The notes: generated by a model not told the origin, from the letters alone. DNA of 59,563 nt, filler included, from Rhizaria sp. SCN 62-66 (GCA_001724265.1; 2 parts of 2 records of this genome joined end to end with filler, not necessarily neighbours in it); one strand, 5' to 3'. Numbered from the whole stretch's first letter, positions 5,013 through 58,241 are shown. Translations and numbers: made by a program.

Positions 5013-6527
5013 TTAGTTGAACTGTCCGGGGGGCAGAATCGGGTAGTTGCTCGTGATATGCTTGCGGTAAAAGTCAATCTGGAAGGCGAGATACTGCATC
5101 GTCGACGAGCGCTCGGACGGCGTAAGAAATGGCACCGTCGTCAGCTTCAACGTATCGTCCTTGACGCCAACATCCTTCAACGGCGGCAGCTCGCCCGCGC
5201 CGCGGCGCGCTGTGAGGTTGGGGAGTTCGCTGCCAGTGGCAGTGGGACGGTAGTGCAGTGTGTCGAGGCGGACGCGCGCCCAGTGGACCGCGCCGGCGGC
5301 CGGGATCGGCGCGTAGGCCGTCACGGTGGCGTTGAGGTGCGCCAGTCCGTCGGGCTCGACCGTGGGCGTGATGCGCGTGCCAAACTGCTGCGCTGTGGTG
5401 TAAAGCTTGTTGTTCTCGCTCAGGATGCCGGAGCGGGTCTTGGCCTGCCACTCGGGCTCCGCGACCTCAGACTTGCGGTACTGGCCCGCCGTGGGGGACA
5501 GACGATGAAAGCCGGAGAGGTAGCGCATGCGGCGCATGATGGCGCCGTCCTCGGCGCCGAGCCCCCACAGCGTGTTAGGGTAACCCTGGGTCTTGAAGAA
5601 GACGGAGATGTTTGCGGCGAACGCGCCGCCGAAGCAGTGGCCCTGCGGGAGGTAGTAGGTGTTGGACTTGCCGAGCTGCGGCTCGCCCTTGGGCACCGCG
5701 CCAGCGTCGGCCACGTAGTAGTGGACGGGCACGCCGCCGGGGCCGAGGTCGTAGGTGTTGAGGTCCGAGGCAGGGAGGTAACGCGGGTCGTGGATGACGA
5801 TGTAGTCGTAGCCCCAGTCAGCGGCGAGTTTGGCGCCGGCGTTGGCGAGCGCGCCGCGGTTGATGGCGACGTCGTAGCTGTCCTGTTGCACGGCCAAAAT
5901 GGCGAAATCGCGCCCGCGGAGCTTGCCGGCCTTAGTGAGATGCGCGTCGAGCTGCTTGAGGAACGGGGAAATGACTGTGGTGAGCTCGGTTGTGTCCGTG
6001 TCGCTGGCTTCAGCGTAGGGAACAATAACGAGCATCTTGCCGTTGGGCGCCTGAGCGTTGTAGGCCTTATGCGCGAGCGTGACGGCGGGGTGCTGCGGCG
6101 ACAACGATGCGGCGACGTCGAGGGGTAGCGTGAGAGCCTTGGGGGAGAAGTCGAGCTTGCGGGACTTCTCAGCCGTGGCGCTGGAACCAACGTCGGTCAT
6201 GCGGGTAAGCAGCTCGGTCGCGGCAGGGGCCAGCTAGACATTGTGCGTGGCCGCCATCGCGGGGGACATTTTGAACGCGGCAGGAGTGAGGAGGGTGGAG
6301 TAGCGCTCGAGGGCCTCAGCGCTGGGCTTCTGGTTCTCGCGGATCCTCTGCGCGTCCTGCGCGCGTGCCTCTGCGGCGATGAGGACGAGATCGGCGGAAG
6401 GAAGTTTCTTGGCAAGATTGCTCGCCTGGGCGTGAACGGTGCAGTCGGGGAACTGGGCTGCGAGAGCGGCCAGCAGTAAGCACACTACCGACACACGGAG
6501 CGACGGGAAAGCGCGGAATACGAACAT
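5013..6527 (-). CDS. Glycosyltransferase family 7 (B4GALT-like), type II membrane protein, 504 aa, with one in-frame TAG (6234-6236)
   Basis: GT7 motifs VIVPY, NRGALAN, YDYIVIHD, FGGAFA, GYPNTLWGLGAEDG. Upstream ORF 6234-6527 carries the N-terminal hydrophobic anchor (SVVCLLLAALAA) and is in the same frame, separated only by TAG (..HNV*LAPAATELLTRMTDV..). Stop TAA. Confidence 0.85.
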
Positions 6528-6960
6528 TATACTTCAAGGGGGTGGCAAAATTAAAACGCAAACGCAATATGCGCTCAGTCTTAAATTGGGTTTGCTGTTC
6601 CACAAAGTTAGTTGCGACACAATTGCGGAGAAAATCAACCTGCAATGAGGTCCTTCGAACAGGCAAAGTTAAACGGACTAATTGGTTGCTCACGGTCACT
6701 ATGACCGTGGGCCGAGAGCGGGTTGAGACTGGGACTGACGGAAGATGAACGAGGGCGATGTTTCGCAAGCTAAATACGGGCGCTGCATGCGCGTGTTTTA
6801 GCGCATGATTTTTGTAATAGAGTGCCAGTGTGTATTTGTATTGCGGATAATCTTTACTTTTGCTGTTAACGTCGGGCATCCGTGCGAACAAGCCCTGTGA
6901 CTTGCCCTCACCTCACCTCGCCCACCATCCTTGTGTCTCTCTCCCTGCGCGCCTCAGAAG

Positions 6961-17487: not shown

Positions 17488-20400
17488 TTACATGACGACG
17501 CACTCATCGGGCCCGGTTGCGCACATCCGGCTCGACTCCGCTTTTTCCCGCGCCGCCGCCGCCGCCGCCGCCGTAGCGCCGCTCCCGCCGACCGCGCCGC
17601 CCCTGCGCACGTGCCACGTCTCCCCGCCCTCGCCCTCGGCCTCGGCCTCGCTAGGCTCGCGCTCAGAGGCGTCCGCGTCAGTGCCAGCGCCACCACCACC
17701 ATCACCACCAGCGGCGGCAGCGGCAGCGGCAGCGGCAGCCTTTTCGCGGCGCCTAATCCGCTCAGCCGCCGCGGCCCGAGCCGCCTCCGCGCCGCCCGCG
17801 CCCGCGGGGTCGTCCTGCGTGTGCGCGTGTGTGTGCGAGTGCGAGGGCTCGGGTGCGTGCGCTGGCGAGAGGCCCAAAGCGGCGCGCAGAAAGGGCTCGT
17901 TCAAGATGAGCTCGCTGCACTCAGCCCACGGCAACAGCACCGCCTCCTGCTCTTGTTCGGTCTGCTCCTGCTTACCCTCGCCGTGCGCACCCGCGCTGCC
18001 GCTAGCGCTTGAGTTGCGGACGCTGGCGGCGGCGGGGAGCGGCAGCGGCGCGGGCAGCGGCTGGCCCAGCGCAACGGCCTGGATGAGCCCGACGAGCCTG
18101 CGCAGCTCAGCGTGGGTGAGCGCGCCGTCACCGTCGCCGTCGTGCAGTGCCAGACACAGAGCCACGCGCTGCGGTGCCGACGCAGTCACCAGCTGCAGCG
18201 CTGTCAAACACAGCAAGTCGCGCAGGTCGGCGAGGGGCAGCGGGGGCACGCGCAATGGCGCGGCAGCCGAAGACTTGCTACTGCGACTAGGCTTACCAGT
18301 CGGAGTCGCCACAGTTGCAGCGGCAGCAGCAGAAGTCCCCTCCGATGCGGTGCTATTCGCGCTAACGGAGGCGGCGGCGGCGGCGGCGGCGTCGGCGTTG
18401 TAGGAGTGGGTGAGCACGTTGCGGTCGAGCTGAGGCGCGTCAGGCATGCCCACAGTCAATTCCCGGCGAGACTTGCCCGCAGTGGTCACCGCATTCGCGG
18501 CTGCCGTCTGCTGCTGCTGTTGCTGCTGCTGTTGCTGCTGTTGTTGCTGTTGTTCGTCGCCACAGTCGCCGGCGCTGTCATACAGGAACTGGAGGTGCTC
18601 CGGCCGCAGCGCTGCGATGGCGAAGAGCCTCTCGAAGGGCGACACAGCGCTGGCGCCGCCAGCCCCCGCGCGCGCGGCATCGGTGGCGACGGCGGCGGCG
18701 CGGGCTTGGCCCCGGTGGCTCCGCATGGCGGCGCCCAAAAGCGCGGACAGCTGAGGCTGCGGCTGCGGACTCACAGTCGCAGTGGCAGTGGCAGTTCCAG
18801 GCGCAGGCGCAGACTCAGGATTGGTCGCAACACTGGAGCTGTCATTGGGGCTGCTGTGGCGCGACTTGGCGAGGGCCAACGCGCGGGACAACCGGACAGG
18901 CACGGTTCCTTCACTCGCACTCGTACTGATGCTGTTGGCGCCAGAGCGGGCCGCGTTGTTGGCGTCAGTCCACGCCTTGTGGATGGCGGCCGAGCGCGCG
19001 AGCAGGAGCGCGTCATGGGGCGCCAGCAGCAGCGCGGGGTCGATCCGGCTCAGAGTGCAGGCCAGGGCCAAGTCGACCGTAGACTGGAGAGAAACGGGGG
19101 GCAGGAACACGCACACGGCAGCGGCCGAGAGCTGTGACGACGCCGGAACCGACACCAAGCCAGAGCCAGAGCCAGAGCCAGGGCTGGCAGAGCGAGAGCC
19201 AGTCACAGAGACAGAAGCAGAGCATGTGTTGTTGCTGCTGTTGTTGTTGCTGAGAGTGGCAGCGAGGGTCGACACGGGGATGGCGCCCGCCCAGTGGCCG
19301 AGGCCAGCCGAGGACACCAGCTGCACCGGCCCCCAGACCACAGGCGGCGCACGCGCACGCGCACTCGCGCTTGGGGCACTAGAGCCAGAGGCCCTCGCAC
19401 GAGAGCTAGAACTTCCATTCCCATCAGTGTGAGCACTGGAGCCAAACTTCTTGTCTGAGTCCGCAGAGAGAGAGCTTGACAGTGCCAGCAGCGCCGGCGC
19501 GGCGAGAGCGCCAGTGCCACGGACCGTGCCAGCGGCGGGGTCGACGAACAGCGCAGACGCAGCCGCAGCCGCGGCCGCCGCCGGGTCCTGAGCAGCTCCG
19601 GCAGCGCTGGCCGCGGCGACCGCCAGCGGGGGCGGCTTAACTAACGGCGCGCCGCGGTGGGGCAGGACGTGGGCGGGGAAGCCAGCGCAGCGTAGCACGG
19701 CGATGAACTCAGCGCACGACACCAACCACGGGGCGCGGTGGCCGGGAGCGCGATCGCAGTCGCTAGAGTCTGCGTCCAGAGTCGAGCTGCTTTGACGGTC
19801 GGAGCCGCCAGTGCCAGTCTTTGCGGTCGTCGTGTTGCGCGTGTTGAAGAGAGAGCCCGCGCGCGCCAGGAAGTCTGTCATCCCCAGGGGCGCCCAGTGC
19901 GCGTGGTCGCAGTTGCTGTTCTGACTCTCACCGGCGCTGTTCGCACTTCCACTCGCACTCGCACTGGCCGCGTCATTGCTATTGTTATTGCTAGTGCTAT
20001 TGCCAGTGTGGGCGTTGTCCGTAACTGCAGAAAGACGCGCGACCAGCCCGCGCGCCTCTGCGACCCGGAAATCGCGCAGTTTGGCCTCCATGCCGCTGCT
20101 GCCCAGCCACTCAGCGCCAGCGGCGCCACCCGACGCGTTGCCAGTGCTCCCGCCCCGCGCGCTCCCGGAGTTGCAGCCGCTGCCACGGGACCCGCGCCAG
20201 AGCGCGTGCACAAACAGGGCCTCAGCCAACGCGTCGATGGGAAGCGCCCGCAGCGCCCGGAGCGCGCGCGCGACGCCGTTGGTGCCACGTAACGAGTGCA
20301 GATTGCGGCGGCGGCGCGCGCGGAGGGCGTCGACGTAGCTCAAAGCGGCACGCGAGCTGGGCATCAGCGGCGCTACCAGCAGACGCGGCAGCGCAGCCGC

Positions 20401-23400: not shown

Positions 23401-23687
23401 CGAGGGCAGGAAGCCTGGTGCGCAGAGTCGCGAGGCCAGCGGCGCGCGCGCGCGGCGACGGCGGCGGGACGACACAGGCGCGGCGCCCGGCGCACGGTAG
23501 CTCGCGGGCGCGAAGGCCGCGACCAGCTCGGCCGCCGCCGCGGGGTCTTGGGCGAGGAACTAGGCCGCCGCGGCCTCGGCCATGACGACGGCGACGCTCG
23601 CGGTGTCGGAGTCAGTGCTGCCGGCGGCGACTGTCAGCGCACTGCCACTGCCACTGCTGCCGTTGGCGTTGCTGCTGCTGTTGCTGC

Positions 23688-23718
<31 letters not shown>

Positions 23719-29845: not shown

Positions 29846-29945
29846 NNNNNNNNNNNNNNNNNNNNNNNNNNNNNNNNNNNNNNNNNNNNTTAATTAATTA
29901 ANNNNNNNNNNNNNNNNNNNNNNNNNNNNNNNNNNNNNNNNNNNN
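29846..29945. other. Artificial contig linker N44-TTAATTAATTAA-N44
   Basis: Exactly 100 bp containing the six-frame-stop spacer TTAATTAATTAA. The flanking contigs may not be truly adjacent. Confidence 0.95.
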
Positions 29946-37229: not shown

Positions 37230-37260
<31 letters not shown>

Positions 37261-39980: not shown

Positions 39981-40428
39981 GTCGCAACGCAAACCAGATC
40001 AAAAACGTCTTGAAAACAACCTCTAAGTAAATTGCCCGAAAGCGGGAACGTCTAACTGCGTACGGCTGAATGAATGCTTTAGTTTTGCGCTCGGACGGGG
40101 GTGAAAATAATGTTTAAGTGTGATTGGTGTTGATGACAACAAGGAGAAAAACCAAAAGTAAGAAACTTGTGTTTATATTCTGAAGCTTGGCCCTCGCATT
40201 GCTGAAATGCATAACTTAAACAATGAATATTACGTAGTATTAGTATCATAACAAAGTCACTATAGCAACAAAAGAAACAAAAATACCAATAATAAGATAA
40301 AAACAACAAATAATAAACAATTTTCTTTGAAACCGACGCATCAAATCCCTTGACATGACTGACAATCTTTCATCTCACTGCTCACACTTGACCAACACTC
40401 TGCTCGTAGAACAGTCGCCCTTCGCGCT

Positions 40429-41543: not shown

Positions 41544-42058
41544 GGACACTAGAGGTGGCGAAAGGAAGTGAAATACAAATATGTTACGTGAGAGTATATG
41601 GAGTTGTCGGGACGTAGGTATATCACATAGGTGCTTGATTTTAATGGCATGAGAAAGGTAAACATAAGTTGGCTAGTTCACTAACCGTTGGACGATCGAC
41701 CTTCAGAAATCCTATTGTAGCGCTAGAAGATTGACATAATATGACAATTAAAGGTCAGGTATGATAGAAACGCTATGCAGTAATAATGGTACACGCCGCC
41801 TGTCAGTATATGCGTTGATTAATGCAGCAAGCAGGCTTGTTTTGTGTGAGGATTGCGGATGCTCGGCTCGAGTCGGCGAAGCAATCGGCAAAAAAACAAT
41901 CTCGCACTTCATCGCCTGGCCGCTATCGTCCGTTAATAAGCGACGCGTATAGAGATCAAAGGTATTACACTCATTTACAGCCATTTACAAAATAATACTT
42001 TCCCAGAAGCTTATCTTAGGTTTGTCGTATCCTTTTTGTTCTCGTCAAAGTCAAACGC

Positions 42059-44200
42059 ATGGAGCCTGCTGCGCCCGCACTACACGCGGCCGCCGCGTCG
42101 GCTGCCACGGCCACCTGCGAGTCCCTGCGTGCCGCGCTCTAGGCCGAGTCTCTGAAGGTTTTGCGTCTGCGCCACGACTACGAGCAGGCCTCGCAGCGCC
42201 TGCTCGCGATCCGCGCCAAGCTTGACAGCGCAACCAGCGCTGCCGAGGCCGACGCCGACGCAACTTTGCTCTCGGCCTCGTCCTCGCTCGTGTCGCCGCA
42301 CCTGTCCACGGACTTGCGCGTGCATGTGACCGTTCCCAGCGCATTTTTACCACAAACCACATTTCCATCTGCTAATGAGAACAAGGATTGCGCGACCAGC
42401 AGCTCTAGCGCCAGCAGCTCGGACTCGAGCGCCAGTGCCAGCGCCAGCGCCAGCGCCACGCGCGCGGCCCCGACGGACCCGGGCTTCCTCCCGCGCGCGG
42501 CGAAGAAGGCGCGTGTGTTCTCGGTGGCGCGCCCGCGGCCCGACGGGCACCTGCTGTCTCAGCTCTGCGTCGTGCTCGTGCGCACCGAGGGCGGCGTCAA
42601 CCTGGGCCAGATCTGCCGCACCGCTGCCAACCTGGGCGTCACCGACGTGCGCCTTGTCGCGCCGGAGTGCGCGCCGCTGAGCGCCGACGCGCGCCGCTTT
42701 GCGCACCACGCGCTGCCGCTGCTGGCGCACCTGCCGACGTACGCGTCATTGTCGGCCGCGGTCCGCGACTGCGAGCTCATCGTCGGCACCTCAGGCAAGG
42801 ACTGCGCGGGCCAGTTGCGCGGCGTCGCCTGGCTTGCGCCGCACGAGGTCCCCGCTGCCTGCCACAAGGCCGGCGTCTGGACCGGCGCCGTCCCCGCCGC
42901 CGCCGGCGACTCGGGTAGCAACAGTGGCGCCGGGAGCGCGAAGGATAAGAACACTGTCATTGGTTCCCGCAAGAGTGCGGCGGCCTTCAACGGCGCCGCT
43001 GCTCTTGCTGCTGCCAACAACGCAAGCAACAGCAGTGGCGCGAATGCTGATCAGCTGGCGATGACGACGGGCAATGTCAACAACATTGCCAACGTCAACG
43101 ACTACAGCGACTGCGATGACAATGATAGCGACTGCGACAGCGACACGGACAACGACGAGGACAGCGACGGTCACGACGATGACGCCAAGGAGACTGCCGC
43201 CAAGCGACGCGGCACGGGCGCGGACGCCGCGTGCCGCGGGCTCGACGTCGTGGCGATGATCGAGCAGGCCCTCGCGCGCGGCGTGCCGACCCTGCGCTCG
43301 CGGCCGCGGCGGCGGTACCGCAGCCAGGGTCCGCGCGTGGCGCTCGTGTTCGGAAACGAGGCGGACGGCATGACGCTCGCGGAGCTGCGTCAGTGCTCCC
43401 ACATGGTCACCATCCCCATGCGCGGCGCGTACCCCAGCATGAACCTCGCGCACGCCGTCACCGCCTGCCTCTTCGCCATCGAACACGCAGGGTGGCCTGC
43501 GGCGATCGCGGCCGCCGCTGGCGCCGCTACCAACGCCGCTGCTGCGCCGACGGGCATGAACACGACGACGCAGGTGAGCGTCCGCGACGGCTCTGAGGAC
43601 GTCTGCCTGCCTCTCCCAGCAGCAGCGGCAGCGACGGTGGCCTCCTCAGCGGGCTCGGGCTCTGGCGCGGGTAACGGCGCTCCGCACACCGGCAGCGCGA
43701 CTGCAGCGCTGCGCACGGTCGCCGTGGGCGGCGGCCACGCGCGGTCCGGCGCCGTGGCGCGCGCGGCGCCGCGCAGCCTGCTGGAACGGCTGCGGACGAC
43801 GCTGGAGGCGACGCTGCACCGACTCGAGGCCGGCATGGCCGTCACAAAGCCCGCGCAGCTGCACGCAATCACACAGCGCCTGCTGCGCACCGCCGCCGCG
43901 AGCAGCAGCAACGGCAGCAGCGACAGTGGCAGTGGCAGTGGCAGCGGCAGTTGCGCCGCGAACGAGAGCGCGACCGCCACAGCCTGCAGCGCCAAGGGCG
44001 GCTTCAGCGAGGCCGACGCGGGGTTCTGCCTGGGCGCGCTGCTGACGCTGAATCAGCGGCTGGACGCGCTGGCCAACAAGAACTCCGGCGCTGCGGTGCC
44101 CCCTCTGGAGCTGGAGCGGTTCCAAGCGCTCGCGCTGGCCGCGGACGTCGGCGCGGAGCTGCGGGCCAAGCCCACGCGCAGCACGGACGCGTTCAAGTGA
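42059..44200 (+). CDS. SPOUT RNA 2'-O-methyltransferase, TrmJ/LasT-like, 713 aa, in-frame TAG at 42140-42142
   Basis: Motifs VVLVRTEGGVNLGQICRTAANLGVTDVRLVAP, LIVGTSG, VALVFGNEADGMT..ELRQC..VTIP..YPSMNLAHAV. The only in-frame ATG upstream of the first catalytic motif is 42059, which needs reading through ..SLRAAL*AESLKVLR.. Stop TGA. Confidence 0.85.
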
Positions 44201-44877
44201 GAGAACATCAAGCGCACTAGCTTCACTTTATTTCACACGGTTACCTGCGGGCCGCGTATAGGCAATTATATAGCAGCTGTACTTTAAAACGCTTGACAGT
44301 GTCTTCGGGTCGATCAAGAGACTTCAGTGCCATTGCCATCCAAAGGCCCATAAGCGAAAACGACTGCAACTTCAAGTGATATAGGAAATATGTTGGATCA
44401 ACAATACATTGTTAGCATGCGGCGTATCATTTTGAGTCCACCTATGTTTGTCTTGTTCTTGAAGCAAATAAATTCGTTGAGATATCATCGCCTTAACATT
44501 ACTGTACGTTCCGTGTCTCAAAAGCGACTCCACAGCTTGCTCGGTCTTGGTGGCGGACACCCACCACTCCGGCCAGTTTGCGTGTGTCAAAGCGCCATAA
44601 TAAGACCCGGGATTATTCGTCCAATCTTAATGCTGACGATGTAAAGCGAATGATTTCTTTGTTTTGTTTCAATTTTTCTTTTTATATTCTTCGAAGCCGC
44701 GATTATCTTGCTATCCTGGACACTCGATGCGCCGCACTGGCCCATGCTCGCAACCCAAACGTTGCGTGTCCGGTTTTCTGACATAACTCTCTGAAACAAA
44801 GTCCATTGTGGTGAATATATGCGTTAAACAGTTCTAACTACACTAAAACATGTAATTGTGCTTTTTTTCATGATTAG

Positions 44878-47155
44878 ATGAGTGACAGCGACTCTGATTA
44901 CGTTTCCGACGACGGTGAGCGCTGGGATGGTTGGGACGAGAACAACACCGAGTCCTCCGCCCCAATCCAGGACCTTGTTGCCCCTGAGAACACCCACGCC
45001 TCTGCGTCCGCCTTCTTTTCTGCCACCAAGGCCGCGTACGACATCGACATCCTGGCCTACTTTGCTGAGGAGAAGCTCGACTTGTATGACCGCATGCGCG
45101 CTATTAACACCCTGCGCCGCACAGCCGCCGGGGGCTCCGTGGCGCCCGCTGCGCTGCTGACCCACCTCAAGACGACCACTGCGGCGTGGCGCGGCACGGA
45201 TGACGCGCTGCTGCCCGCCGTGGAGGCGGACGCGCTCCTGCAGTGGCTCGTTGAGGTCGGCCACGGCGCCGACTACGACGACTCGGACGACGACGCCGAC
45301 GCCGACCCCGCCGACGGTGGCAACGCCTACGGCAAGGACACGACGACGGTGCCCGAGCCCGCGGAGGAGGAGCGCGCGGAGACGGTCCCCGCGGCGGCGC
45401 TGCGCGCGAGCGTGCACGAGTCGCGCGCGCTGCGGCAGCAGGTGGACGAGCTGCGTGAGGTGGTTGCGCGCATGACCGCCACGCTCCAGGACTTCGCGCA
45501 GCACGCCGCCGTCAACGCAGACGGCGCCGCGGCGGGCACTAGCGCTGCTGGCGCTGCTAGCGTGGCGTCACTGGGCGAGCGACTGCCGGGCGTGCCGCGC
45601 GACGACCTCAAGGCCAACGACGCGTCCTACTTCTCGGGCTACTCGCAGCGCGGCATCCACGAGGTGATGCTTAAGGACAAGATCCGCACCGAGAGTTACC
45701 GCGACGCGATGCTGGCGCGCGCTGAGGAGCTGTTCAAGGACAAGGTAGTGCTCGACGTCGGCTGCGGCTCGGGTATCCTGACCATGTTCGCCGCGCGCGC
45801 CGGTGCCAAGCTCTGCATCGGCGTCGACGCCGCCGACATCATCGACAAGACGCGCACGATTGTCGCCACCAACGGGCTGGCGGACCGCGTGAAGCTCGTC
45901 AAGGGCAAGGTCGAGGAGGTGACGCTGCCCGCGGGCGCCGAGGCCGTCGACATTATCGTCTCTGAATGGATGGGCTACTTCCTGCTCTACGAGTCGATGC
46001 TGCCCTCGGTGCTGTACGCCCGCGACAAGTGGCTGCGCCGTAAGGACGGCCGCTCCGCCTACCAGCACTGCCTCGACCGCGCCGGCGTCACGCCCGCGGC
46101 CTACGCCACCACGCCCGCGAGCGTCTACAGCGCCGCCGAAAGCTACACGAACGAGATTGAGTTCGCGACAGGCAGCTTCCTCTTCCCCGACTCGAGCCGC
46201 ATGTTCGTGGCCGGTGTCGACACGCGCGCGCTCCGCGCCGACCGCCAGTGCTTCTGGCGCGACGTCTACGGCTTTGACATGTCCGCGCTCATGACGCCCG
46301 ATGAGGCGTTTCCCGGCGAGTCGGTCGACGTGCTCGAGGCCGGCGACGCCTGCCGCGTCACCGACGAGTGCGGCCTCCAGGTACGGCGACATCATAAAGT
46401 TGACAACATGGAAATGAGGGAAGTCATCACAAGTGATGGACTGATATGATATATTCATGACACGTTCTATATTTTTGCGTATATTTTTATTCTATTTTAT
46501 TGCTTTTTTTCTGTTTCTCAATCGTATATGTTATTGAATCATGACTGAGTATTTCTATCTGACCCAAGTTGTTGCTTTCTACCGCTCTATTCTTTTCCTC
46601 ACTTTCTATTGCATATCTCCTTTCCTCCCTTCTCAGGCGTTCGACCTGCAGACCGTCGCGTCCGCGCAGCTTGACTTTGTGTCGCACGTGACGCTCACGG
46701 CGACCAAGGACGACGCCGTTGAGGCCTTCGCCGTCTGGTTCGACACCGTCTTCTCCTCGGCCGCGCGCCGCCCCTCCGGCGCGGCCCCTGCGTCGCCGGT
46801 GCACCGCGGGCCCGCACCCGGCGAGGGCGACTTTGCGTCCGCGGCGGCCGTACGCGCGCTCGACGGTTCCGTGGTGCTGGACACAGCCTTCAGCGAGCCG
46901 CCGACGCACTGGAAGCAGTCAGTCTTCCGCCTCTCGCGCGTGTGCAGCGTCAGGGCGGGCGACAAGATTGAGCTCGTTCTCAAGGCCACGCGCCGCAGCA
47001 CGAACCACCGCCACTACAACGTCGAGGTGTTCTACACGCTGCGGCCCGCGGCGGGCGGCGCGGCGGCGGCGAAGCCCGCGGGCAAGCCTGACCCTCTCAA
47101 CACTGAGTGGGCCGAGCCCAACGTCGAGTACCAGCAGATGTACTCGCTCCAGTAA
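44878..47155 (+). CDS. PRMT3: Protein arginine N-methyltransferase 3-like; exons 44878-46380 and 46637-47155
   Basis: YFSGYS..IHEVMLKDKIRTESYR, VLDVGCGSGIL, DIIVSEWMGYFLLYESML, THWKQ loop. PRMT3-type acidic N-terminus and LDLYDRMRAINTLR segment. Intron GTACGG..CAG. Stop TAA. Confidence 0.9.
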
Positions 47156-47875
47156 GCGGGCGAGGCCGTCGGCGATCAAACGAGGCAGTTCGCCTGCCAG
47201 CCAATGTGCTTGCAAACGAGTGAGCGAGTGGTGAGCGAGTTGGATAAGGTGTAACTGTCGCGCTCATGCTGTGCTGCTGCGCTTGTGTAATATGTAGTGA
47301 CAATTTTGTTTCTAACCTAGGATGAGTGCCTCGTTCTCTAATGACATTATATACGTACGTATGTAGTGAATAAATCTGTGTTTAGTTTTGGTATTGTAAG
47401 TTGAATAGTTGAAAAGATCTTAATACAAGTAAGTACCGATAGAAACCTTTAATTGACATCGCGCATGTTGCAAGGCATCAAAGGTTTACTCAAGATTTGG
47501 ATCAAATCACCTCAGTTTGTCAAATAGAATGGTTTCTAAAATGTTATTTCTCATTTTTGCAATCACAACTGGTCTGTATTTCAACCCATACTCAATGTTT
47601 GTGCTTTTGGTCATGCAGCTGTAGTGTGTTAGCTCAGCCTGCGCCGACGTGGTGCCTAAGAAATGAAGCAGACACTCCCGTGATAGCTTTATGGTTAAAG
47701 ATGGGTTAGCTAGGATAACCCAGTTTTCCAATCAACTATCTCTACCGTTCTAAAACGGAGACGATGATGCACTTTGTTTTCTACGAGTATTTGCATTCCA
47801 AATAATATCACTCCTCTCTCCCAACCCTCCTTTCGCGCACTCACTACATCATCTCATAACACGTGTAGAACGTGC

Positions 47876-50672
47876 ATGACAAGCAAAGCGTCAGTTTGCG
47901 CGTTTTGCAGCAAGAATATTCGGTCTCTTATTGGAGTCCGCTCCGCACGCATCTGTGAGGCTTGCTTGCAGGTACGGATCCAAACGCTCGCGCACAAGCA
48001 GCTTGCTTCACAACCTTTAAATCTTCTCAAACTCACCTTTATTCACCTCATTTGTCGTGTTTCAGCAATGCCACTTGCTTTTTGCAAACTCTTACCTAGT
48101 CCATGTCTGCTTCTGTGCGCGCTCGCCCCGATTACCAATGAAATGCAGGCTGAGAACGCAGTGCAAGGTTTCGCCTCGTCATCGTCATCATCGTTTTCGG
48201 CCACCCAAGCAGCGACTCCCGCGCTGCGTACCCCTCACGTACGTCCTTGTCTGTGACGTCGATATGTCACATTCGCTAGTAGATTTTAGCCGCCTGGTCA
48301 TATTGTTCTCATGCTACAGTCAACAGGCTACGTATACTCTTTGCCCCTCATCCTTTTCTTCGACTCCCCGATTTGTCCATGTGCAGTTCTGTCATAAGCA
48401 CGGCGAACCTGTACCAATTTCGTTCTGGTGCGAGACATGCGCCGTTGTGTTCTGTGGCCACTGTGCATTTCTCAACAGCTATCACACCGGACACTCGATC
48501 AACTCCGTGGCCAGCAAGCACGCAGAGCTGCGTGCGCACGCGGCCACGCTCACTCCGCGCATTGCCACGCTTGCGAAGCAACTGGAGGAAGAGACTGCGC
48601 TTACAGCCACGCTGCGCAAACGCGCCGAGGCGTTGCAAACTGAGTTGCAAGCTCGCGCTGCATCCTTTAGCGAGCTTGCAGTTGCGCCGTACACTGCCCA
48701 GCTTGAGCTACTGAAGACGTTCATGACACAAACGGCAGCGCGCGAGACCAAGGCGCTCGCGAACGCGCACAAAACGCTCGGATCTATTGACAACTTTAAG
48801 GATGCACTCAGTATCGCGCGCTTGCACCGCATTCTGTTCCGCCCACCTGGCCCAGAGCCCGGGGACGGTGCCGACGGCGCTAGCGAACCGCGCAGTCTGG
48901 CGTACACACCGTGGGCCACTGCGCGCGCCGCGTTTGAGGCAGCGCTGACGGACGCGGTGGAGACTGTGACGCCGCGCACTGCCGTCTGCGAGGTCGAGGT
49001 GCCCCTCTCCGCGCTGGCGTCGTCTGCTGCTGCGGTGGAGCTGGGCACGGCGGAGCTGTGCGGCGTGGCGTTCGTCTGCCGCGTCCGCCGCGGCTGCAGC
49101 TGCGGCGCCGCTCCTCTCGTGCTTGCTGTGGAAGGGTCAGACGCAAGTTGCGCGCTGGCGCCGTGTACGTGTGCGATTGTGGGTGAAGTCGAGGCGCGCA
49201 CCGCCTCTGACGCCCTTGCAGCGCGCTACAACGAGTGCGCGGCGCGTGCGAAAGCAGTTGCGGAACTAATTGACACCGAGGACGCTGACGACAATGATGA
49301 CGATGATGCTAGGGAAAATGGCGCTGCGGCCGTTGCGCGCAACGGCAGTGATTCCAAAGACACAGTGTTTGGCACTGTACACGTCGAGTTTGCGGTTGCT
49401 GGCGCTGCTGATCAAGCCACCTACAAGTGCAATGTGATGCTCACAGACCCAAACAAGCGCGTTACCTCTGTTGCGCTTGCGAAGCACGCTGAGCTCATGG
49501 GCGGCAGCATTGCGAACGTCCGCGTGCGCTGCACTGTCGCCTTTCCCGACCTTTTTCATCAGGCGCGCGCGCTGCAGCTGTCCACAGATGCGCTGTCACA
49601 TGACTTCGCCGCGGCACAGCGGGCGCTAGCGCAGGGCAGCGCCGCTGCGGCGGCGGAGCTCGCAAGCAGTGTGCAACAGGCTGATGAGCTGCGCCGAAAG
49701 TTTGACGCGTTCGTAGACTTGCAACGGTTTGCGAAATCGGACGATGTTTTCAACAAGGAGCTTCTTGACGCGTTCAACAAGCATGTTGCGCATGTTCTTG
49801 AGAGCGGAGGCTATCCTATCATATGCCGGAATGTGGAAAACGCCCGTCTTAGGGAATCACACTGCCGATTTAAATGTAAAACCCCTGCTCCTGCGTGGAC
49901 CAGCGGCGCACCTTCAACATCTTTGACAGCACTGCAAACCAAGGCACGTGAGCATATCCTTGCCTACGCAGGCACCGCTATTGGGCTGAAGCACATCACG
50001 TCAGATGTGGTGATGACGGCGTCCTATCACACTCAACACGCGGGTCTTCAGGAGTACACTATTGTCATTCGACTTGACGACAAAAAGACTCCGTGCAATG
50101 CTGCTCACTTTCGCATTGCAGCAAATGCCAAAATATTATGTGATGCAATCCACAAGTGCTTTGCCCCCCCAGACCAGCTGGGTACTGTGCTGCCATTTAT
50201 CACGATGTCCAGCTGCTGCGTTTCCGGTCCGATCACCGTGCCTCCGGGCGATATTCTCTACGGGGAGATCTCATCTCCTGTGGATGCTGGCGCTGACGAA
50301 CATATATACCCTTTGGGGACTGTAATGATGTGTGCTAATATTATTCTTGATCCTAAAAACACGGATCATTAGACCCTGTTTTGGAGGTGTAACTCACAAT
50401 CGCAAAAGTATGATCATTTAGGCTATGATGGCGTTTTTTCAGGCACGACCAGCATACCTTGGTTCATCATCACGGAGCCCTGTGCAGCGAACCTTCTCCC
50501 TGGTGGTGTTGTCCCCGTTGGACGCGTGCTGTCCTGTGTGTTGGGACAGACTCCGTCGACGGACGACTTCGGCGACGCGCTCTTTAAAGCTGACAATACT
50601 CAGTGGTTTAGCGAGTACTGCAAGCGTCCATGTCACCCCTCAGTTCATTTCAAGCTATTTTGGAAGCGATGA
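47876..50672 (+). CDS. C4 zinc finger + B-box + coiled-coil (TRIM-like) protein; exons 47876-47971, 48149-48238, 48387-50672; in-frame TAG at 50370-50372
   Basis: Exon 1 has CAFC-x15-CEAC. B-box CHKHGEPVPISFWCETCAVVFCGHCAFLNSYHTGH is followed by a coiled coil. Both introns are phase 0, GTACG..CAG. The frame continues 99 codons past TAG to TGA 50670-50672, and that tail is conserved in the neighbouring paralog. Confidence 0.75.
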
Positions 50673-50881
50673 GGTACTAGTACTTCAACATCCACATATA
50701 TTGCTTTCTCCACTAGTTTATGGGCCAAAACCACGCAGAAGGAGTTTCTGCGTGGTGACTATCACGCTTGTAATCAATTACAAGCGACTAGTCAGAGGAA
50801 TTTACACTCTTAATTGTAAAATTTATCTTGGTGTGCAACGCCGTTTGTACTTTTCAAGAATCAGAACCATTTTTTTCCAAA

Positions 50882-51244
50882 ATGATCTGTGTCGCATGCC
50901 ATCACGCGCGCGCATCGCTCACGTACCGGCTACATCGTCAAAGTCGACGGTACGCCCATCGCATGGCGTTGGTGTTCGAGTGGCTCGGTTGCAGGACCAG
51001 CGGCCCGGTGCGCGCGTCCACCGACAACCTGCCCACGGTGCCGTTGGGCGTGTTCGAAGGCAAGCCCGTCGTGCCCGGAGCCGAGGATCACACTGCCGTG
51101 GTCCGCCCCAATGCCAAGTTGCAGACTTGTGCCGAGGTCCGGCTCAAGCGCGCAGTCAAGGCTAGCACGACATCCGGCGTTGGTGCTGCCGGCGACGAGG
51201 GGCCGTGGCGTTAGCCTAACCGACGCGGGAAGGCCCGAACATAA
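50882..51244 (+). CDS. Possible small hypothetical protein (120 aa if TAG 51212-51214 is read)
   Basis: GC-rich island in an AT-richer intergenic region. ATG 50882 is open to TAA 51242-51244 apart from one TAG. No recognisable motif. Confidence 0.25.
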
Positions 51245-51717
51245 GCGTGTGCAGTTTCCGTTGTTTTGAAACCATGCGTTTCTATATGTCTTTTTAAATG
51301 GTGGTACTTCGCGCGTACGAATTGATCCAAGGCTCACGCGTGGGGGAGTGTTGAGCCACTCAGCAACTGGCTTGCTCGAGTGGCGACGGGCCTAAGGAGC
51401 GGCAGACATGATGCACTTGACATCGTATTTGGTGTCGAGATATTTGCGGCATTGTTGTTTCTCCCAAGGAACGCAATTGCACTATATTGTTGTCAATCTT
51501 TGTGGTCTACATGTATTATATCGTATCGTGTGTTTCGCCTTCTAACATAATAAACTCATCGAGATATTCGTGGCATTTTTACTTCTCTCCCTACTCTTCG
51601 GTCAGAGACCGTTACTGTGTGGTTGTTCTCCTGAAACTAACAAATCCCACTCCAAACACAACAAACCGGTTGTCCCTCTTTTTATGGATCACGTTCCCCA
51701 ACGCGTTTAGACCCCAA

Positions 51718-52318
51718 ACAACGAGCAAAACCTCGCTTTGCATGTTTTGTGACAAGTGTATTTGGATAGGTGGGAATCTCCGGGCACGCATCTGCGCAAC
51801 CTGTTTGCAGGTAAGTTAGCTCTTCGTCAGCACTATCATTGCTGTCACTCCACATCAGAAACCCTATCGACAAACGTGTAAATAACGAATCCGTTCTCAC
51901 ACGTGATGCCGTGTCTTTATCGTGACTTTTCTCTTTGCTTTCTTTGTCATGATTTGATCGTAGGCTGAGAACGAACTACAAGGATCATCACGTTCCAGCC
52001 TTTTGTCTGTCACTATTGTCCCGACCTCCGCTACTCCCGCACCAAAACCCTCAAACGTACGTTGCTCACTTGGTTATGATGATATATCTTGGTTCATCAT
52101 CACGGAGCCGTGTGCAACAAACCTTCTACCTGGCAGTGCTGTTCCTGCTGGTTACGTGAGGTCGTGGGTTCTGGGGATAGCCCCAGCGACTGAGGATTCC
52201 GGCGACACTCTTATTAACGCTGACAATACGCAGTGGTTTAGCAAGTAGTGCAAAGATAGATATCATAACTTCTTTCCTCATAAAATCTGTTTTTTTCACT
52301 TCGTCTTTGAAGCGGTGA
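51718..52318 (+). pseudogene. Internally deleted tandem duplicate of the B-box gene
   Basis: TSKTSLCMFCDKCIWIGGNLRARICATCLQ|GT matches exon 1 and AG|AENELQG...PSN|GTACGT matches exon 2. WFIITEPCATNLLPG...ADNTQWFS then follows almost directly and matches the parent's C-terminal tail. Start ATG is absent, ~2.1 kb is missing and the terminal TGA is out of frame. Confidence 0.75.
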
Positions 52319-52913
52319 TGTACATGTGTATTGTGGATTACTTTGTCAACTTTGCGGACACGCTTAATCAGTTTCAATTGCATCACTTCGCATGTCATGT
52401 CATGTCATGCCATGTCATTCATGTTAACGACGGCTGGTGAAAGCGGTACATTTTAGCACAGTTAAGACACTTACGTCTCACAAACATATTTCAACGTTTT
52501 ATAAGTCAGATACGTCAGGCAGGTGTGGTTATATTCTAAGAAAAGCGGTCGTGTATTATTCATTCTCTAAACGACTCTGTTGTCGTTTTCCCCCTTAACT
52601 CACACGCTCGATATCAAAGTTGATCTGACTTGACTCATGCTCTATCAAAGCCCAGTTTGCCAGATACGTGTGTTTTGTCTGTGTTTTTTTCTTTTGTCGA
52701 TAGCCTACACTTGTTGATTTCAAAAGCTTGCTGTGTGTTGCTCTGTCGTCGCTGCATTGCTACGCAGCGTTGCTCTTGCGTGTCTTTTTGCTTTAACAAG
52801 AGTCAAAGTCAAAGCGGAAGGCACGTCAGTACAGTCTGCTGCCGTCGCTCGCGCGCACGGTCAGTGCACGCTGTGTGCGTGCATGGAGCGCAAAGTAAGA
52901 GTTAGTCACTCAC

Positions 52914-53276
52914 TTAGAGCTGGGGAGTGGCCTGCGGAATGGCTTGCGGGATAGCCTGAGGAATAGCCTGGGGAATAGCTTGGGGAATTGCCACGCCCTG
53001 GTCCTGCAGCTGCGGCGCGAACTGGAGCTGGCCCTGGGCCTGAGGGAACTGCGCGATCTGCTGGACGGGGACCTGGCCCTGGACGCCGCCGCCGTAGCCG
53101 CCGTAGCCGCCACCGCCAGCGCCAAAGCCGCCGCCGAAGCCGCCACCGTAGCCGCCGTAGCCGCCGCCGCCAGCGCCAACAGGGGCCTGGAAGCCGCCAC
53201 CGAAGCTGGGGCCGCAGCCGTACTGCGCAAAGGCGGAGCCGGCCAGCGCGAGAAGAGACGCGATAACGATACGCAT
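52914..53276 (-). CDS. Secreted Gly/Tyr/Phe- and Gln-rich protein with (AIPQ)5 tail, 120 aa
   Basis: Signal peptide MRIVIASLLALAGSAFA, GGGYGGYGGG repeats, Gln-rich segment, AIPQ repeats with synonymous variation. Stop TAA. Confidence 0.85.
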   Translation of the reverse strand: MRIVIASLLALAGSAFAQYGCGPSFGGGFQAPVGAGGGGYGGYGGGFGGGFGAGGGGYGGYGGGVQGQVPVQQIAQFPQAQGQLQFAPQLQDQGVAIPQAIPQAIPQAIPQAIPQATPQL

Positions 53277-54840
53277 GAGTACTTCTGTGTGCGAAATAAC
53301 ACGCAAAAATAAAACACAAAGGAGATGAAACATTGCTCTGAGCACGGAGTTCTTAAAAGCGAGTCCGAAAATGGACATTGAACAACTTGAAGAAGAAAAA
53401 CGTCTCCTTGTCACAATTCGTTATCGATACCTGTTCTAGCTCTCAGTGCTCGGGACATCGCCTCTTTTTTTCGTTTTAGTTTGGGCATCGATTTGCCCTT
53501 TGCCGGCATTTCAACAAATTTCTTGCTGTTCATTCACTGTTGCATTGCTACCGCGGCTTACATTTTTTCAGATCCATAGTTCAGTGAAATTCGTATCAAT
53601 CAACTTAAAGTTTAAACGAAATTTGAAATATTTTTTAAATGTGATTCATGTTAAGATATTCAATTTATTAACGTTCTTTTTATGATACGTTGCTGTGGAA
53701 TATATTTGGAAATTCTTTGTGAATGATGGCGGCTTAAACTTTAAGTCGGTGAAGGCGAAACTCAATGGATGCATACTTCATGAAACATTGTTGAATCACG
53801 ACCTCGCTGCTTATTTTAAGTGATATTATGTCAATAATTTAGCTACGTCGAAAAATGTAACCGAACTCTTTTGTATCACTGTGCAGTATGTCGTGTGCTA
53901 CTCATGTTGAAGACAATCGCTGTGGCGTCATGCTGATTACCGACTCAGTTTATTAATTGCAAGTACACTCGACGTGCATACTCCCGCTAAACATAAATAT
54001 ATTACTTCTCTCAAACTAGTTTACGCGGCTGAAGCTAAAACTATAACCAAGCCCCTTCGTGCCACTCACAGTCGCTCTGCTCACAGTCACACTGCTAGTT
54101 TGCATCCAACCTCTTTTTGGTGGATATCTCTTTTCATACCAAGGATCGCGCTAATCTAACGTGTAACTTCATAATATAGTTATATGAAATGAAGAGTCTG
54201 GCGTGCTGCAATTTAAAGCCAAATGTCCTAGTAATCTCACCGCAGACCGCAAGCTTACTGTGCTTCAAGTCCATATCAGAAACCCTCAACGTCGTTAATA
54301 TGTAACTCAGTGATTTTTTTCGCGCCGCAAAGTCTTTGTAGTGTCATCGTCTCTCCGTTAAAATGATGTTTGAGTCACTCTTGCAAGCCGAATGAACTCT
54401 GGATGCACTCTGACGTCTCCCTGTGAACAGCAACAAACACGTGTAATACAGAAAATAGATCGCGTGCAAACGCACACCAGATGAAAGGAATGATAATAGT
54501 GGATGTATTTCATAATCTGCACCGTGTAACGCAAAAGCGAGCTTGATTGTCATATGGGTCTCTAAGAAACGTAAAGAACATTCGCTACATCGACACAGCA
54601 GATCAAACGTAGCGCAAACACTAGTGCGTTAGCAACTTCACAGTGGCGACGCACACCACACGCGTATCATCTCAAGTTTCATAACTAAAAGCGTGATCAC
54701 TTCGCGCAGCGCAGCACTGCAATGCCACACTGTGCTGGTTCCGGCGAGGAGACGTCAGCACCCAACCACCGAGTGCTTTGACAGCTAACCGTCAAGCTTC
54801 GTGTTCCACGCTTAATAAGAAACGCTTCGCGCTTGCGCGC

Positions 54841-55347
54841 TTAGCAGAGAGTGAGGCTCTTGGTGATGCAGATGCGGCACTCCTTGTTGGGGACAGCAAC
54901 TACGTTTCCGGGCGCAATCTGGATGTCGATCGTGGGCTTGCAGATGTGGCGGAACTTGGCAGCCAGATCGAGCGTGGTGCGGAAGTACTCGGTGACGCCC
55001 ATGCCGGTGCAGGAACCGTGCTTGTCCCACTCGTGCTTCCAGAAGGCGTCGTTGTTGCCGGCGCCCTTGCAGCTGAACCACTCCGTCTCCATCTCCTTGC
55101 GGAAGCCGGCGACGGCCGAGGGGGAGTAGGCCGCGCCACCGCACTCCATGCCCCACTGCGGCCAGAGCCCGTGGATGCCGTACTCCTGCTGCTTCTCCGT
55201 GCACTTGGACATGGACAGCAGCATCGTCTGGTTGTTGTTCTTGTACAGCTCCGCCGCGCGCAGCTCCTGCTGGTAGTCGAACGGCATCGCGCTCGCGCCG
55301 GACAGCACGGCGAGCACCAGGGCGGTGAGGGCCAGGATCAGCTTCAT
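54841..55347 (-). CDS. Secreted ribonuclease T2 family protein, 168 aa
   Basis: Signal peptide MKLILALTALVLAVLSGASA; CAS-I YGIHGLWP; CAS-II FWKHEWDKHGSC. Stop TAA. Confidence 0.92.
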   Translation of the reverse strand: MKLILALTALVLAVLSGASAMPFDYQQELRAAELYKNNNQTMLLSMSKCTEKQQEYGIHGLWPQWGMECGGAAYSPSAVAGFRKEMETEWFSCKGAGNNDAFWKHEWDKHGSCTGMGVTEYFRTTLDLAAKFRHICKPTIDIQIAPGNVVAVPNKECRICITKSLTLC

Positions 55348-56402
55348 GGGCGGACGGGGGGTCTGCGCGGCAGGCAGGGCGGTTGGAGAGTGCAAAAGGG
55401 AGATGGCAAGTAAGAGGGTGTGAGACGGGATACCTAGACCTCGCTGGGCTGCCGCAATCAACAAAAAAAGGCTCAAATGTGAGTAGCATGCGCTCATGCT
55501 TGTTGTTGTGTCGAGTTTGGGGAGCGTTTGGCACGCTTCTCAAGTCGGCAACGCTTAAAGGGAGTACGTTATGACGACAGAATGACGCGCGCAAGGCTCT
55601 ATGGGCGCGATAATTCACGTCGCATGTCACTGTAAGCGTGTGTAGCAGATATAATACAACGAGTTAATGAAGGGAGCCAAAGCGCGATTGTCAGCTGCGG
55701 GACAGGGAGCGTGACGCGCGCTGCCCCGAGGGCGAAAGTGGCTGGAGAGTCCAGTTGAATGGTCACAATTTTTACTGTCGACACATCGCAACAAGAACAA
55801 GCTCCACGGTGTTACAATTTAACAAATACTGTGAAAACTCCATATACATTCGTTGTACAGTGTTGCAGACAGTCTGACGGCCAATGTGGTTCACTCTACT
55901 CGTCGCAAAGTTACAAGGCCTCTGCGCGAGCGAGTGGAAGCTGAAAGCGAAAGCGACGTCGCCAGCTCACGGAAAATCACGCATACCAAGTGAAAAGTAC
56001 ACTTTCTGGAAACTACAAAGTAATATATCTTTGTCCGGGCGTAGGGTGTAATGGTAGTGTGTAAATTAACTCATTTAAACGTATATGTTCCACTTTACTG
56101 CCGGTTTTCGGCACTCTTGTGGTGTCGACTGTTTTTAGGAACCGTTTCCGTTGGCGTTGCTGGTTGGTCCCGCCAAGTTGAACTGAACTTACAAGTTGAA
56201 TATGTATGTGTCGTGACCGTTGCATGCAAAAACTCGGCGTTTTTGGCGTAAAACATGCTAAATTCTATATTAATCTTTACTAACACTTTTCCAAGTTGTC
56301 TTGTTTGTCCCTCATACGCACCCGCTCCACAGCCACACACCTCCTTATCGGACCTCCACAATCTGCTTGTTGCACATACCCAGTCTGCGAGTCGGCTGAC
56401 GC

Positions 56403-58241
56403 ATGCGCCGCTCTCTTGTCGTGCTAGCCCGGCGCAGCACCGCGGCCGCCGATCCCAGCTTTATGTCTGAGCTGCTCTAGCTCTCCAGTGCCATCCCAAA
56501 GCCCGTGCGCGCGAAGAAGCAGACCGCAACCACTGCGTCAGTCACACTAAACACGGTCCAAAGCAACGGAATTGTCTCTGACATGGCCGCGGTTGCTTTC
56601 GCAACTAGCCTTGGCGCTGACCCACAGGTTGTGAAGCCCGCGCGGAAGCCCCGCATGACCAAGGCCGCCAAAGCCGCCGCCGAGGCCGAGGCCGCAGCTG
56701 CGGCGCTGGCAGCCCAAGTACAGGATCCTGCAGTTACTGCGGCGGCGGCGCTGGCGGCGACCCACGCCGCCACCGAGGCCGCAGTGGCCGCGCACGCGGC
56801 GCGGGTGAACGCGGCGGCGCGGCGCATTGTGCTGGACGCGCGCGCGGACGCGCAGGCGAACGTCGACCTCCATAGCCGCGACAGGAGGCACAGCACCGTG
56901 AGCAAACTCGCGATGATGCAGCAACAGCAGCAGCAGCAAATGCGCGCGCCAGTAAAGCAACAGGGCGATGCGACCTTTGCCCTTAAGAGCGCTAGTGCTC
57001 GCAAAAGCAGCAAGACGGCACCTGTGAGTGCTAGTGAAAGTGAGACGACGAGTGAACGCACGCTTACAGCCAAGCCCGCGCTCACCTTCACCAAAATCGC
57101 GCCACACAGCCCCAGCTCCGGTCCTAACCCTGACTCTGCTCGTGGCGCGGTTTTGCGCCCGCTGCCGCCGCCCGCGCTGGACCCCGCGACCGGCGAGCCC
57201 GAGTTCCGCCCCGCCTCAGCGCTGGACCGCTGCGCGGACGGGCTGCCTCCGTACCTAATCGGCGTGCATGCCTCGGCCGCGGGCGGGCCCGCCGCGGCCG
57301 TGGCCAACGCTCACGCGCTGCGCTGCGACGTCTTCGCGCTCGACGTGCGCAACAAGCGCCGCTGGGAGTCGCCGCCGCTGGCACCCACCGACGCCGCGGC
57401 CTTCCGCGCCACGATGCGCCGGCTGGGGTACCCGCTGCACGGCGGCAGCGTGCTGCCGCATGGGTCCTACCTTTGCAACCCCGCCTCGCCGGACCCCGCG
57501 GTGGTGGCCAAGACGCGCGCCGCGCTGGCCGACGAGCTGCGCCGCTGCGCGCGGCTGGGCGTCGCGCTGTACAACATCCACCCCGGCTCGGCAGTCACGG
57601 TCGCGGGCCGCGAGGGCGCGCTCGCCAGGGTCGCGCGGGGGCTCAACGAGGCGCTCGCGGCCACCGACGCCGACACCACCGAGGCCTGCGCTGCTACCGC
57701 CGCCATCGAGCGCGTCACTGAGGGCTCGAGCTGCAGCGCTCGCAATGCTGACTCAGCTATTACTGTCCCTAAGAAAGTGACCATCGTGCTTGAGAATACG
57801 GCTGGTGGCGGCGAGACGCTGGGCCGGTCGTTTGAGCAGCTGGCGGACATCATCGCGCTGGTCGAGGATAAGTCGCGCGTGGGCGTGTGCCTCGACACGT
57901 GCCACCTCTTCGCGGCCGGCTACGACGTCGCCACCGCGCGCGGCTTCGAGGCCGTCATGGCGCTCTTCGACGACGTCGTCGGCGCGCGGTGGCTGCGCGC
58001 GTTGCACGTCAACGACAGCGAGGGCGCGTGCGGCAGCCGGCGCGACCGCCACGCGCAGCTGGGCGCGGGCGCCATCGGACTTGAGTGCTTTGAGTACCTC
58101 ATGAACACTGACCGCTTCAGGGGCCTCCCGCTCGTGCTCGAGACGCCCGTGACCGAGCTCAGCGGGGACCGCGAGCAGGTTGCGCTGCTGCGCAGTCTCA
58201 CCAGCAAGAAGCTCCCCATCGTCGGCACGCTCGACGAGTGA
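56403..58241 (+). CDS. APN1: AP endonuclease, endonuclease IV/APN1 family, 612 aa from ATG 56403, in-frame TAG at 56478-56480
   Basis: Endo IV motifs IGVHASAAGG, VLPHGSYLCN, YNIHPGS, IVLENTAG, RVGVCLDTCHLFAAGYD, HVNDS..RDRH, LVLETP. In-frame ATGs at 56403 and 56463 lie upstream of a TAG. Stop TGA. A later start (ATG 56583) is possible. Confidence 0.9.

Follow-up and report, generated by a model that had tools for sequence, protein, structure and literature searches.

Does UAG still end translation in the organism whose DNA is analysed here? The stretch in question, referred to throughout as the window, comprises 59,563 bases of the assembly deposited as Rhizaria sp. SCN 62-66 (GCA_001724265.1), in the form of two joined contigs (A and B), and is nuclear DNA of an uncultured, intron-poor protist, rich in guanine and cytosine (GC), from wastewater and bioreactor communities. 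Seven of its genes, otherwise intact, each carry one in-frame TAG. An earlier note on this DNA had explained these triplets by a nuclear code in which UAG is a sense codon while UAA and UGA remain stops, and our analysis upholds that proposal: conserved parts of one protein flank the TAG in a single frame, the same TAGs recur in other assemblies, none of 17 gene ends is a TAG, and the sites do not fit as introns. Each TAG is internal to one gene, with parts of the same protein on either side, and assembly errors do not account for the TAGs. Since intact genes carry the TAG in frame and TAG is never found at the 17 gene ends, UAG is most likely read as an amino acid, and the sequence makes it very probable that in this organism UAG is sense, with UAA and UGA as the stops.

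Seven genes carry a single in-frame TAG

All seven of the TAGs in question were located, as follows (CDS, coding sequence; each TAG is named below by its first base on the coding strand).

6234-6236, minus strand: in-frame TAG, codon 98 of a GT7-family glycosyltransferase gene (CDS 5013-6527)
23560-23562, minus strand: in-frame TAG, about codon 429 of a TBC RabGAP gene (CDS 17488-24846)
26573-26575, plus strand: in-frame TAG, codon 198 of the gene for a Ser/Thr-rich secreted/surface protein (ATG 25982; 3′ end off contig A at 29845)
36691-36693, minus strand: in-frame TAG, about codon 512 of an RBBP5/Swd1-like gene (CDS 30460-38226)
42140-42142, plus strand: in-frame TAG, codon 28 of a SpoU/TrmJ-like methylase gene (CDS 42059-44200)
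50370-50372, plus strand: in-frame TAG in the C-terminal cyclophilin-like domain of a B-box/coiled-coil gene (exon from about 48378 to the TGA at 50670-50672)
56478-56480, plus strand: in-frame TAG, codon 26 of an APN1/endonuclease IV-family gene (CDS 56403-58241)

The CDS set comprises 13,805 codons in 18 segments and holds seven in-frame TAGs, no TAA and no TGA; the two zeros, which agree with the earlier claim that the modelled genes contain no internal TAA or TGA, are partly circular, since open reading frames (ORFs) are bounded by stops. At about 0.05% of codons, TAG is comparable in number to the rarest sense codons, AGA (7) and ATA (12). When the TAG is read through, the ORFs reach 507 codons in the GT7 gene, 2557 in the TBC gene, 1409 in the surface protein gene, 2709 in the RBBP5-like gene, 735 in the SpoU gene, 884 in the B-box gene and 614 in the APN1 gene. 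Readthrough fuses frames that are long on both sides of the TAG in the TBC gene (506 and 2023 codons), the surface protein gene (212 and 1105) and the RBBP5-like gene (631 and 2076). All seven TAGs sit in loops, low-complexity inserts or N-terminal regions, none of them at a conserved position, and five of the seven fall within the first fifth of their CDS; TAG is thus as rare, and as confined to poorly conserved segments, as had been described. Two further TAGs that had been counted as sense, at 25838 and 25934, find no support: both precede ATG 25982, the most probable start codon of the surface protein gene, and the sequence around them is weakly coding-like. Likewise, the TBC gene had been taken for a TBC/EF-hand gene, of which the TBC domain stands, the EF-hand being only a sub-threshold Pfam match (E-value 0.16-0.36).

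The surroundings of the TAGs were compared with those of the gene ends. At six of the TAGs (the B-box gene excepted) both flanks have a GC fraction of 0.57-0.83 and a GC fraction at third codon positions (GC3) of 0.65-0.93. After all nine of the TAA and TGA termini tested, GC drops to 0.32-0.54 and GC3 to 0.23-0.55, and the next stop follows within 2-54 codons. The flanks of the B-box TAG, with GC of 0.42 and 0.47, are neutral in this test. The codons directly after the TAGs (CTG, TTC, ACC, CGG, GCC, ACC and CTC) show no common context, and a CARYYA-type readthrough signal, as in the UAG context of tobacco mosaic virus (TMV), is absent 3′ of the TAG at all seven sites.

Conserved parts of one protein flank the TAG

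Homology flanks the TAG on both sides in two of the seven genes, those for the RBBP5-like and the B-box protein. In the RBBP5-like gene, the ORF 5′ of TAG 36693 matches residues 3-96 of RBBP5/Swd1 entries in the PDB (E-values 2.6e-11 to 2.8e-13), and the same frame 3′ of the TAG matches PDB RBBP5 residues 299-357 (E-value 7e-14), including a WSAFAPDF-type motif.

In the B-box gene, a HMMER search of 1.84 billion representatives returned 82 homologues; in many of them the alignment runs through query position 665, the site of the TAG. An alignment of 20 rows shows invariant residues upstream of the TAG (G147, T148 and V149) and downstream of it (C202, G209, V212-G215 and F236). The AlphaFold2 (AF2) model of the domain, built from 39 sequences (predicted template modelling score, pTM, 0.81), has confident strands on either side of the TAG, which is residue 165 and falls inside a low-confidence loop (164-189). 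Matches of the C-terminal fold to cyclophilins are weak (Foldseek, E-values 0.006-0.1). The gene combines a B-box zinc finger, a coiled coil and the cyclophilin-like domain (48378-50672), an arrangement which we take to be reminiscent of TRIM-Cyp fusions.

Several side observations concern these two genes. The RBBP5-like protein (30460-38226) extends over about 2,590 codons, against 538 residues in the solved human chain, through low-complexity expansion. A metagenome scan for this gene returned an identical contig (L001, described below) and a 47% relative on a second contig (L002; 8,063 nucleotides, nt), which encodes a distant RBBP5 relative with 47% identity over 65 residues and comes from another organism with 46% GC. 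Within the B-box family of 82 cluster representatives, nine of the nine members looked up are metagenomic. A protein from another assembly (P0002) equals the B-box protein as far as "LTALQ" (about window position 49940) and then continues with 16 divergent residues to its end, which points to a variant with a 1-nt indel or to a mistake of assembly at that place. Further downstream, at 52084-52253 in an ORF at 51958-52440 on the plus strand, lies a 171-nt fragment that matches the 3′-terminal part of the B-box gene at 78% identity; it contains two 1-nt indels, its invariant residues are changed, and a TAG within it stands where the intact gene has TAC (Tyr). This fragment is probably a decayed duplicate or pseudogene of the B-box gene.

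The five other genes

In the GT7 gene the Pfam domains Glyco_transf_7C and 7N lie 3′ of the TAG, and the translation suggests that a hydrophobic signal-anchor N-terminus is present solely upstream of it; GC is 0.66 and 0.67, and GC3 0.88 and 0.82, on the two flanks. A word-indexed search for relatives of this protein gave as its sole match the gene's own truncated product, a database entry (P0001) that is cut at the TAG. The TBC gene has its TBC domain 5′ of the TAG and an open frame of 2023 codons 3′ of it, with GC of 0.83 and no ATG in the first ~85 codons; no GTNNGT occurs within 400 nt of TAG 23562. The surface protein gene, whose product has no Pfam family match, gives a positive coding score in frame before and after the TAG, and does so too when the model is trained solely on TAG-free genes. 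A 15-nt imperfect tandem repeat (26561-26590, 11/15 identical) surrounds this TAG, which in unit 1 stands opposite a TAC in unit 2 (LTG-TAG-T / VTG-Y-I); the pairing may be chance.

In the SpoU gene, an AT-rich leader gives way to GC-rich coding sequence exactly at ATG 42059, with the TAG 27 codons on, and no ATG follows the TAG until a point between the halves of the SpoU domain. The APN1 gene appears, from its translation, to have a presequence-like N-terminus solely upstream of the TAG. It is the weakest of the seven cases, because an ATG 36 codons downstream could also serve as the start.

TAG is absent from gene ends

The census of gene ends depends in part on the junction of the two contigs:

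29846-29945: artificial linker, N44-TTAATTAATTAA-N44, a six-frame stop linker that joins contigs A and B

Because the apparent TAA of the surface protein gene lies in this linker, the gene was left out of the census. The join also makes this gene and the RBBP5-like gene neighbours by artefact only. The remaining sample is small: 17 gene termini, nine of them TAA, eight TGA and none TAG. The earlier count likewise had 17 termini without a TAG, but divided into 10 TAA and 7 TGA; one modelled TAA, that of the surface protein gene, is a linker artefact. On the assumption that TAG makes up 20-25% of stops, the probability of finding none among 17 is about 0.008-0.023, a range that includes the value of about 0.008 proposed before, which likewise holds only for such an assumed share. 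In the codon usage of this gene set, 61% of one-step nonsense mutations give TAG, and under that spectrum the probability that seven of seven nonsense codons in pseudogenes are TAG is 0.612^7 = 0.03. These statistics are modest, and the case is carried by the gene-by-gene biology.

The TAGs recur in independent assemblies

The stretch or part of it is listed for 11 of 13 public runs, from seven studies of bioreactors and wastewater, and one of these runs is probably its source. Contigs of four runs, from three of the seven studies, were compared with the window, most runs with a small share being left out. Four TAGs (36693, 42140, 50370 and 56478) are kept in independent assemblies. A contig of the Joint Genome Institute (JGI; L001) is identical to the window at 7,385 of 7,386 positions (99.986%) and keeps TAG 36693, which is covered by this contig and by no listed contig piece of the four-run comparison. 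Contigs of a run from another study (X3) cross 42140, 50370 and 56478 with no differences, and an X3 contig over 41077-42457 is identical to the window. Contigs of a further run (X4), from a strain with a few single-nucleotide polymorphisms elsewhere, cross 50370 and 56478 and keep both TAGs.

Elsewhere, X4 has two gaps relative to the window, one of 4 nt at 47352 and one of 1 nt at 55840 (the latter also in the RNA run X5), both outside the CDS models, and X4 shows third-codon-position differences clustered at 39330-39372, in exon 2 of the proteasome gene, from a diverged copy or a relative. Many apparent joints in the run contigs were disregarded as products of GCN/CAG low-complexity repeats with short sides. 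Past 29946, where the N of the linker stands in the window, contig L001 runs on for 28 nt of real sequence. Of the scans of prokaryote genome contigs for relatives, one yielded nothing and the other archaeal proteasomes only.

Introns of the verified type

The proteasome alpha-5 gene provides the two introns that serve as reference:

38980-39204, plus strand: intron 1 of the proteasome alpha-5 gene, GTTCGT...TTAG, 225 nt, CT-rich, with lower GC
39585-39787, plus strand: intron 2 of the proteasome alpha-5 gene, GTACGT...ACAG, 203 nt

These introns (n = 2) begin with a GTTCGT or GTACGT donor, are CT-rich in between and close with a YAG acceptor, and the in-frame TAG at 39202 is itself the 3′ splice site of intron 1. 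Near the seven TAGs under study, no GTNNGT donor occurs in a usable position; in the B-box gene none is found in the 8 codons between the last conserved residues and the TAG. The earlier statement that none of the TAGs lies in a GTACG-type intron therefore agrees with our results, there being no donor in range and a composition unlike that of the verified introns. Judged by these features, the seven TAGs do not belong to introns of the type verified in this organism.

Alternative explanations

UAG might be leaky or context-dependent, with programmed or frequent readthrough and a dual role as stop and sense codon, rather than fully reassigned. We consider this unlikely. The extreme rarity of in-frame TAG (seven in 13,805 codons) and its unconstrained positions, five of seven in the first fifth of the CDS, do fit inefficient decoding, but TAG accounts for none of the 17 gene ends, and the seven TAGs share neither a downstream context nor a CARYYA-type signal. 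Moreover, termination at the TAG would leave RBBP5, SpoU (27 residues) and B-box products without their domains, so that readthrough would need to be efficient, which in practice makes UAG a sense codon.

It is very unlikely that the TAGs are altered by RNA editing or removed before translation, whether within very short in-frame introns or within intervening sequences of a non-canonical kind. Tiny introns do occur in some rhizarian nucleomorphs, each TAG ends in AG and is formally a possible 3′ splice site, and no listed RNA contig crosses a TAG. Against this, the verified introns are 203-225 nt long and CT-rich with GTTCGT or GTACGT donors, whereas the TAG sites are rich in GC and GC3, coding-like and without such a donor nearby, and in the B-box gene the conserved residues reach to 8 codons before the TAG, an interval that itself lacks a GTNNGT donor.

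It is hardly credible that the seven genes are pseudogenes disabled by nonsense mutations or carry nonsense alleles, or that the TAGs arose as consensus errors when the metagenome was assembled, for although TAG is the product of 61% of one-step nonsense mutations, the decayed fragment at 52084-52253 combines a TAC-to-TAG difference with indels, and a frameshifted B-box version (P0002) exists in another assembly, seven of about 18 genes would have to be dead and yet show no frameshift, TAA or TGA, with frames open for up to 2,076 codons past the TAG, domain residues conserved 3′ of it, and identical TAGs in contigs of other samples and studies.

Several results weigh against a sense UAG or narrow the case for it. 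All seven TAGs are at unconserved positions, which offer no conserved column from which to assign an amino acid. Neither a tRNA gene nor a gene of another RNA family was found in the window (ARAGORN, Rfam), and there is no eRF1 among its genes. The comparison with run contigs covered 36550-56549, and the TAGs of contig A (6236, 23562 and 26573) lie outside it. Parts of the region are present in the RNA run X5, but no listed X5 contig crosses a TAG, and splicing and editing are consequently argued against by sequence features only. An unbiased scan of codon usage in 50-codon windows took in all stop triplets with open frames around them (19 TAA, 51 TAG and 101 TGA); coding sequence on either side was called for no TAA, no TGA and three TAGs, among them the intron end at 39202. 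The scan missed TAGs 23562, 36693 and 50370, and could not score 42140 and 56478; it is a weak discriminator within low-complexity genes. The ORF at 30036-30287, which is weakly coding-like, has a TAG as its end; with 42% GC and no family match it was taken as non-coding and rejected as a gene with a TAG terminus. The absence of TAG from 17 termini is moderately significant only, and the 61% share of TAG in the nonsense spectrum makes the fact that all seven are TAG weak by itself.

Probable decoding of UAG and its significance

A sense UAG would be decoded by a tRNA that pairs with it, either a dedicated tRNA(CUA) or near-cognate tRNAs, and eRF1 would no longer recognize UAG efficiently. The codon is very rare and would be tolerated mainly at unconstrained positions, which fits a recent or poorly decoded reassignment; a frequency of about 0.05% of codons is what one would expect soon after capture or if decoding were inefficient. 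As the encoded residue, Leu has a rhizarian precedent and Gln is the commonest outcome. The two TAG/TAC pairings, in the repeat at 26573 and in the fragment at 52084-52253, are weak leads only that may point to Tyr; they count as mere leads because the B-box fragment is probably a pseudogene. It is unlikely, though conceivable, that UAG is at an early stage of capture with a meaning new among UAG-only nuclear codes (e.g. Tyr), or that it is decoded ambiguously by near-cognate tRNAs, without a dedicated tRNA(CUA), after eRF1 lost its recognition of UAG. If either were true, this would be a nuclear code caught mid-change, and Rhizaria would hold a second such lineage, one separate in origin from the sainouroid exLh.

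Codes in which UAG alone is reassigned bear on the question of how a stop codon can be captured when the same release-factor determinants normally read both UAA and UAG. Nuclear codes with differing meanings of UAG and UAA have been described in a handful of lineages only (PMC5304391, PMC11687900). Literature searches, outside supplements, turned up no second UAG reassignment in a rhizarian or cercozoan. The organism is an abundant and recurrent member of engineered wastewater communities, and since standard-code gene calling cut P0001 at the TAG, the metagenome annotation of this lineage is systematically wrong.

Gene content of the window

Coding stretches of the window have 55-70% GC and spacers about 35-48%, and neighbouring genes switch orientation along it. 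Pfam identified two mitochondrial carriers, the GT7 glycosyltransferase, a Stealth/LNR (GNPTAB-like) protein, the TBC RabGAP, the RBBP5-like WD40 protein, a DCN1-like protein, proteasome alpha-5, a thioredoxin-like protein, a PRMT3-like enzyme, RNase T2, the SpoU methylase, the B-box protein and an AP endonuclease 2 (APN1-type). Many of the proteins carry very long low-complexity inserts of Ala, Ser, Gln, Asn and Asp; the TBC protein (17488-24846), at about 2,450 codons, is a conserved protein swollen by such inserts. A small gene at 52914-53420 on the minus strand, with a TAA end, encodes a Gly/Tyr-rich protein with a signal peptide and AIPQ repeats, for which no family match was assigned. 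No rRNA is present in the window.

Affinity of the organism

Exon 2 of the proteasome alpha-5 gene has its named matches in Euglypha rotunda (72%), Gymnochlora (66%), Paulinella (65%), Lotharella (64%), and Spongospora and Lapot (both 60%), and the best named matches of the PRMT3-like domain are Nonionella (50%) and Chlorarachnion (48%). In a tree of 28 rows from a single marker of 127 residues, the window sits on a long branch (0.59) in a weak cercozoan cluster, with support of 83-84 in the Shimodaira-Hasegawa-like approximate likelihood ratio test (SH-aLRT). These data suggest that the organism is probably a rhizarian and perhaps a cercozoan. No sainouroid sequences are among the named matches examined. 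Closer relatives were found in metagenomes only, with a PRMT3 orthologue at 76% and a B-box orthologue at 58%, the latter on an 86-kb contig. The orthologues P0084 and P0217, with identities in this range of 58-76%, come from contigs of 86 kb and 19 kb.

Comparison with known codes

The best named relatives fall in Rhizaria, a supergroup that already holds one lineage with UAG as Leu (PMC5304391). This is the rhizarian exLh (Sainouroidea, Cercozoa), in which UAG encodes Leu and UAA and UGA are stops; it has 56 UAA and 15 UGA termini, and 384 UAG codons in 71 genes, where UAG is the commonest Leu codon in proteasome genes and stands at conserved Leu positions (Panek et al. 2017, PMC5304391). 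The window resembles exLh in that UAG alone is sense and the termini are UAA and UGA only, with UAA the commoner (here 9 TAA and 8 TGA), and the best named matches suggest the same supergroup. The two differ in that UAG is abundant in exLh, whereas here it makes up seven of 13,805 codons, none at a conserved position; the alpha-5 exons contain no TAG against 21 Leu codons.

In Iotanema spirale (Fornicata), UAG encodes Gln, at about 8% of Gln codons, with UAA as a stop (PMC5304391). The likeness is that UAG alone is reassigned and is a minority codon. However, Iotanema is an unrelated anaerobic metamonad, whereas the best named matches of the window are Rhizaria, and if UAG were Gln here it would account for 2% of Gln codons (7 vs 350). 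UAG alone is also reassigned in phyllopharyngean ciliates (to Leu or Gln), in Protocruzia (to Gln) and in a green alga, Scotinosphaera (to Ser) (PMC11687900). They share with the window the difference in meaning between UAG and UAA, but belong to other lineages.

The ambiguous stop/sense codes of Condylostoma, karyorelicts and Blastocrithidia resemble the present case in having standard stops in frame inside genes. They differ in that the codon read as sense also acts as a stop towards the 3′ end, and in that two or three stops are involved, whereas here TAG alone is found in frame and ends none of 17 genes. Spliceosomal introns of about 200 nt and coding sequence with 55-70% GC, as found in the window, are unlike ciliate macronuclear DNA. 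If the two TAG/TAC hints do mean Tyr, the nearest precedent would be the nuclear code of Mesodinium, in which UAR is Tyr (NCBI table 29); there UAA and UAG are both reassigned, whereas here TAA is the commonest terminator.

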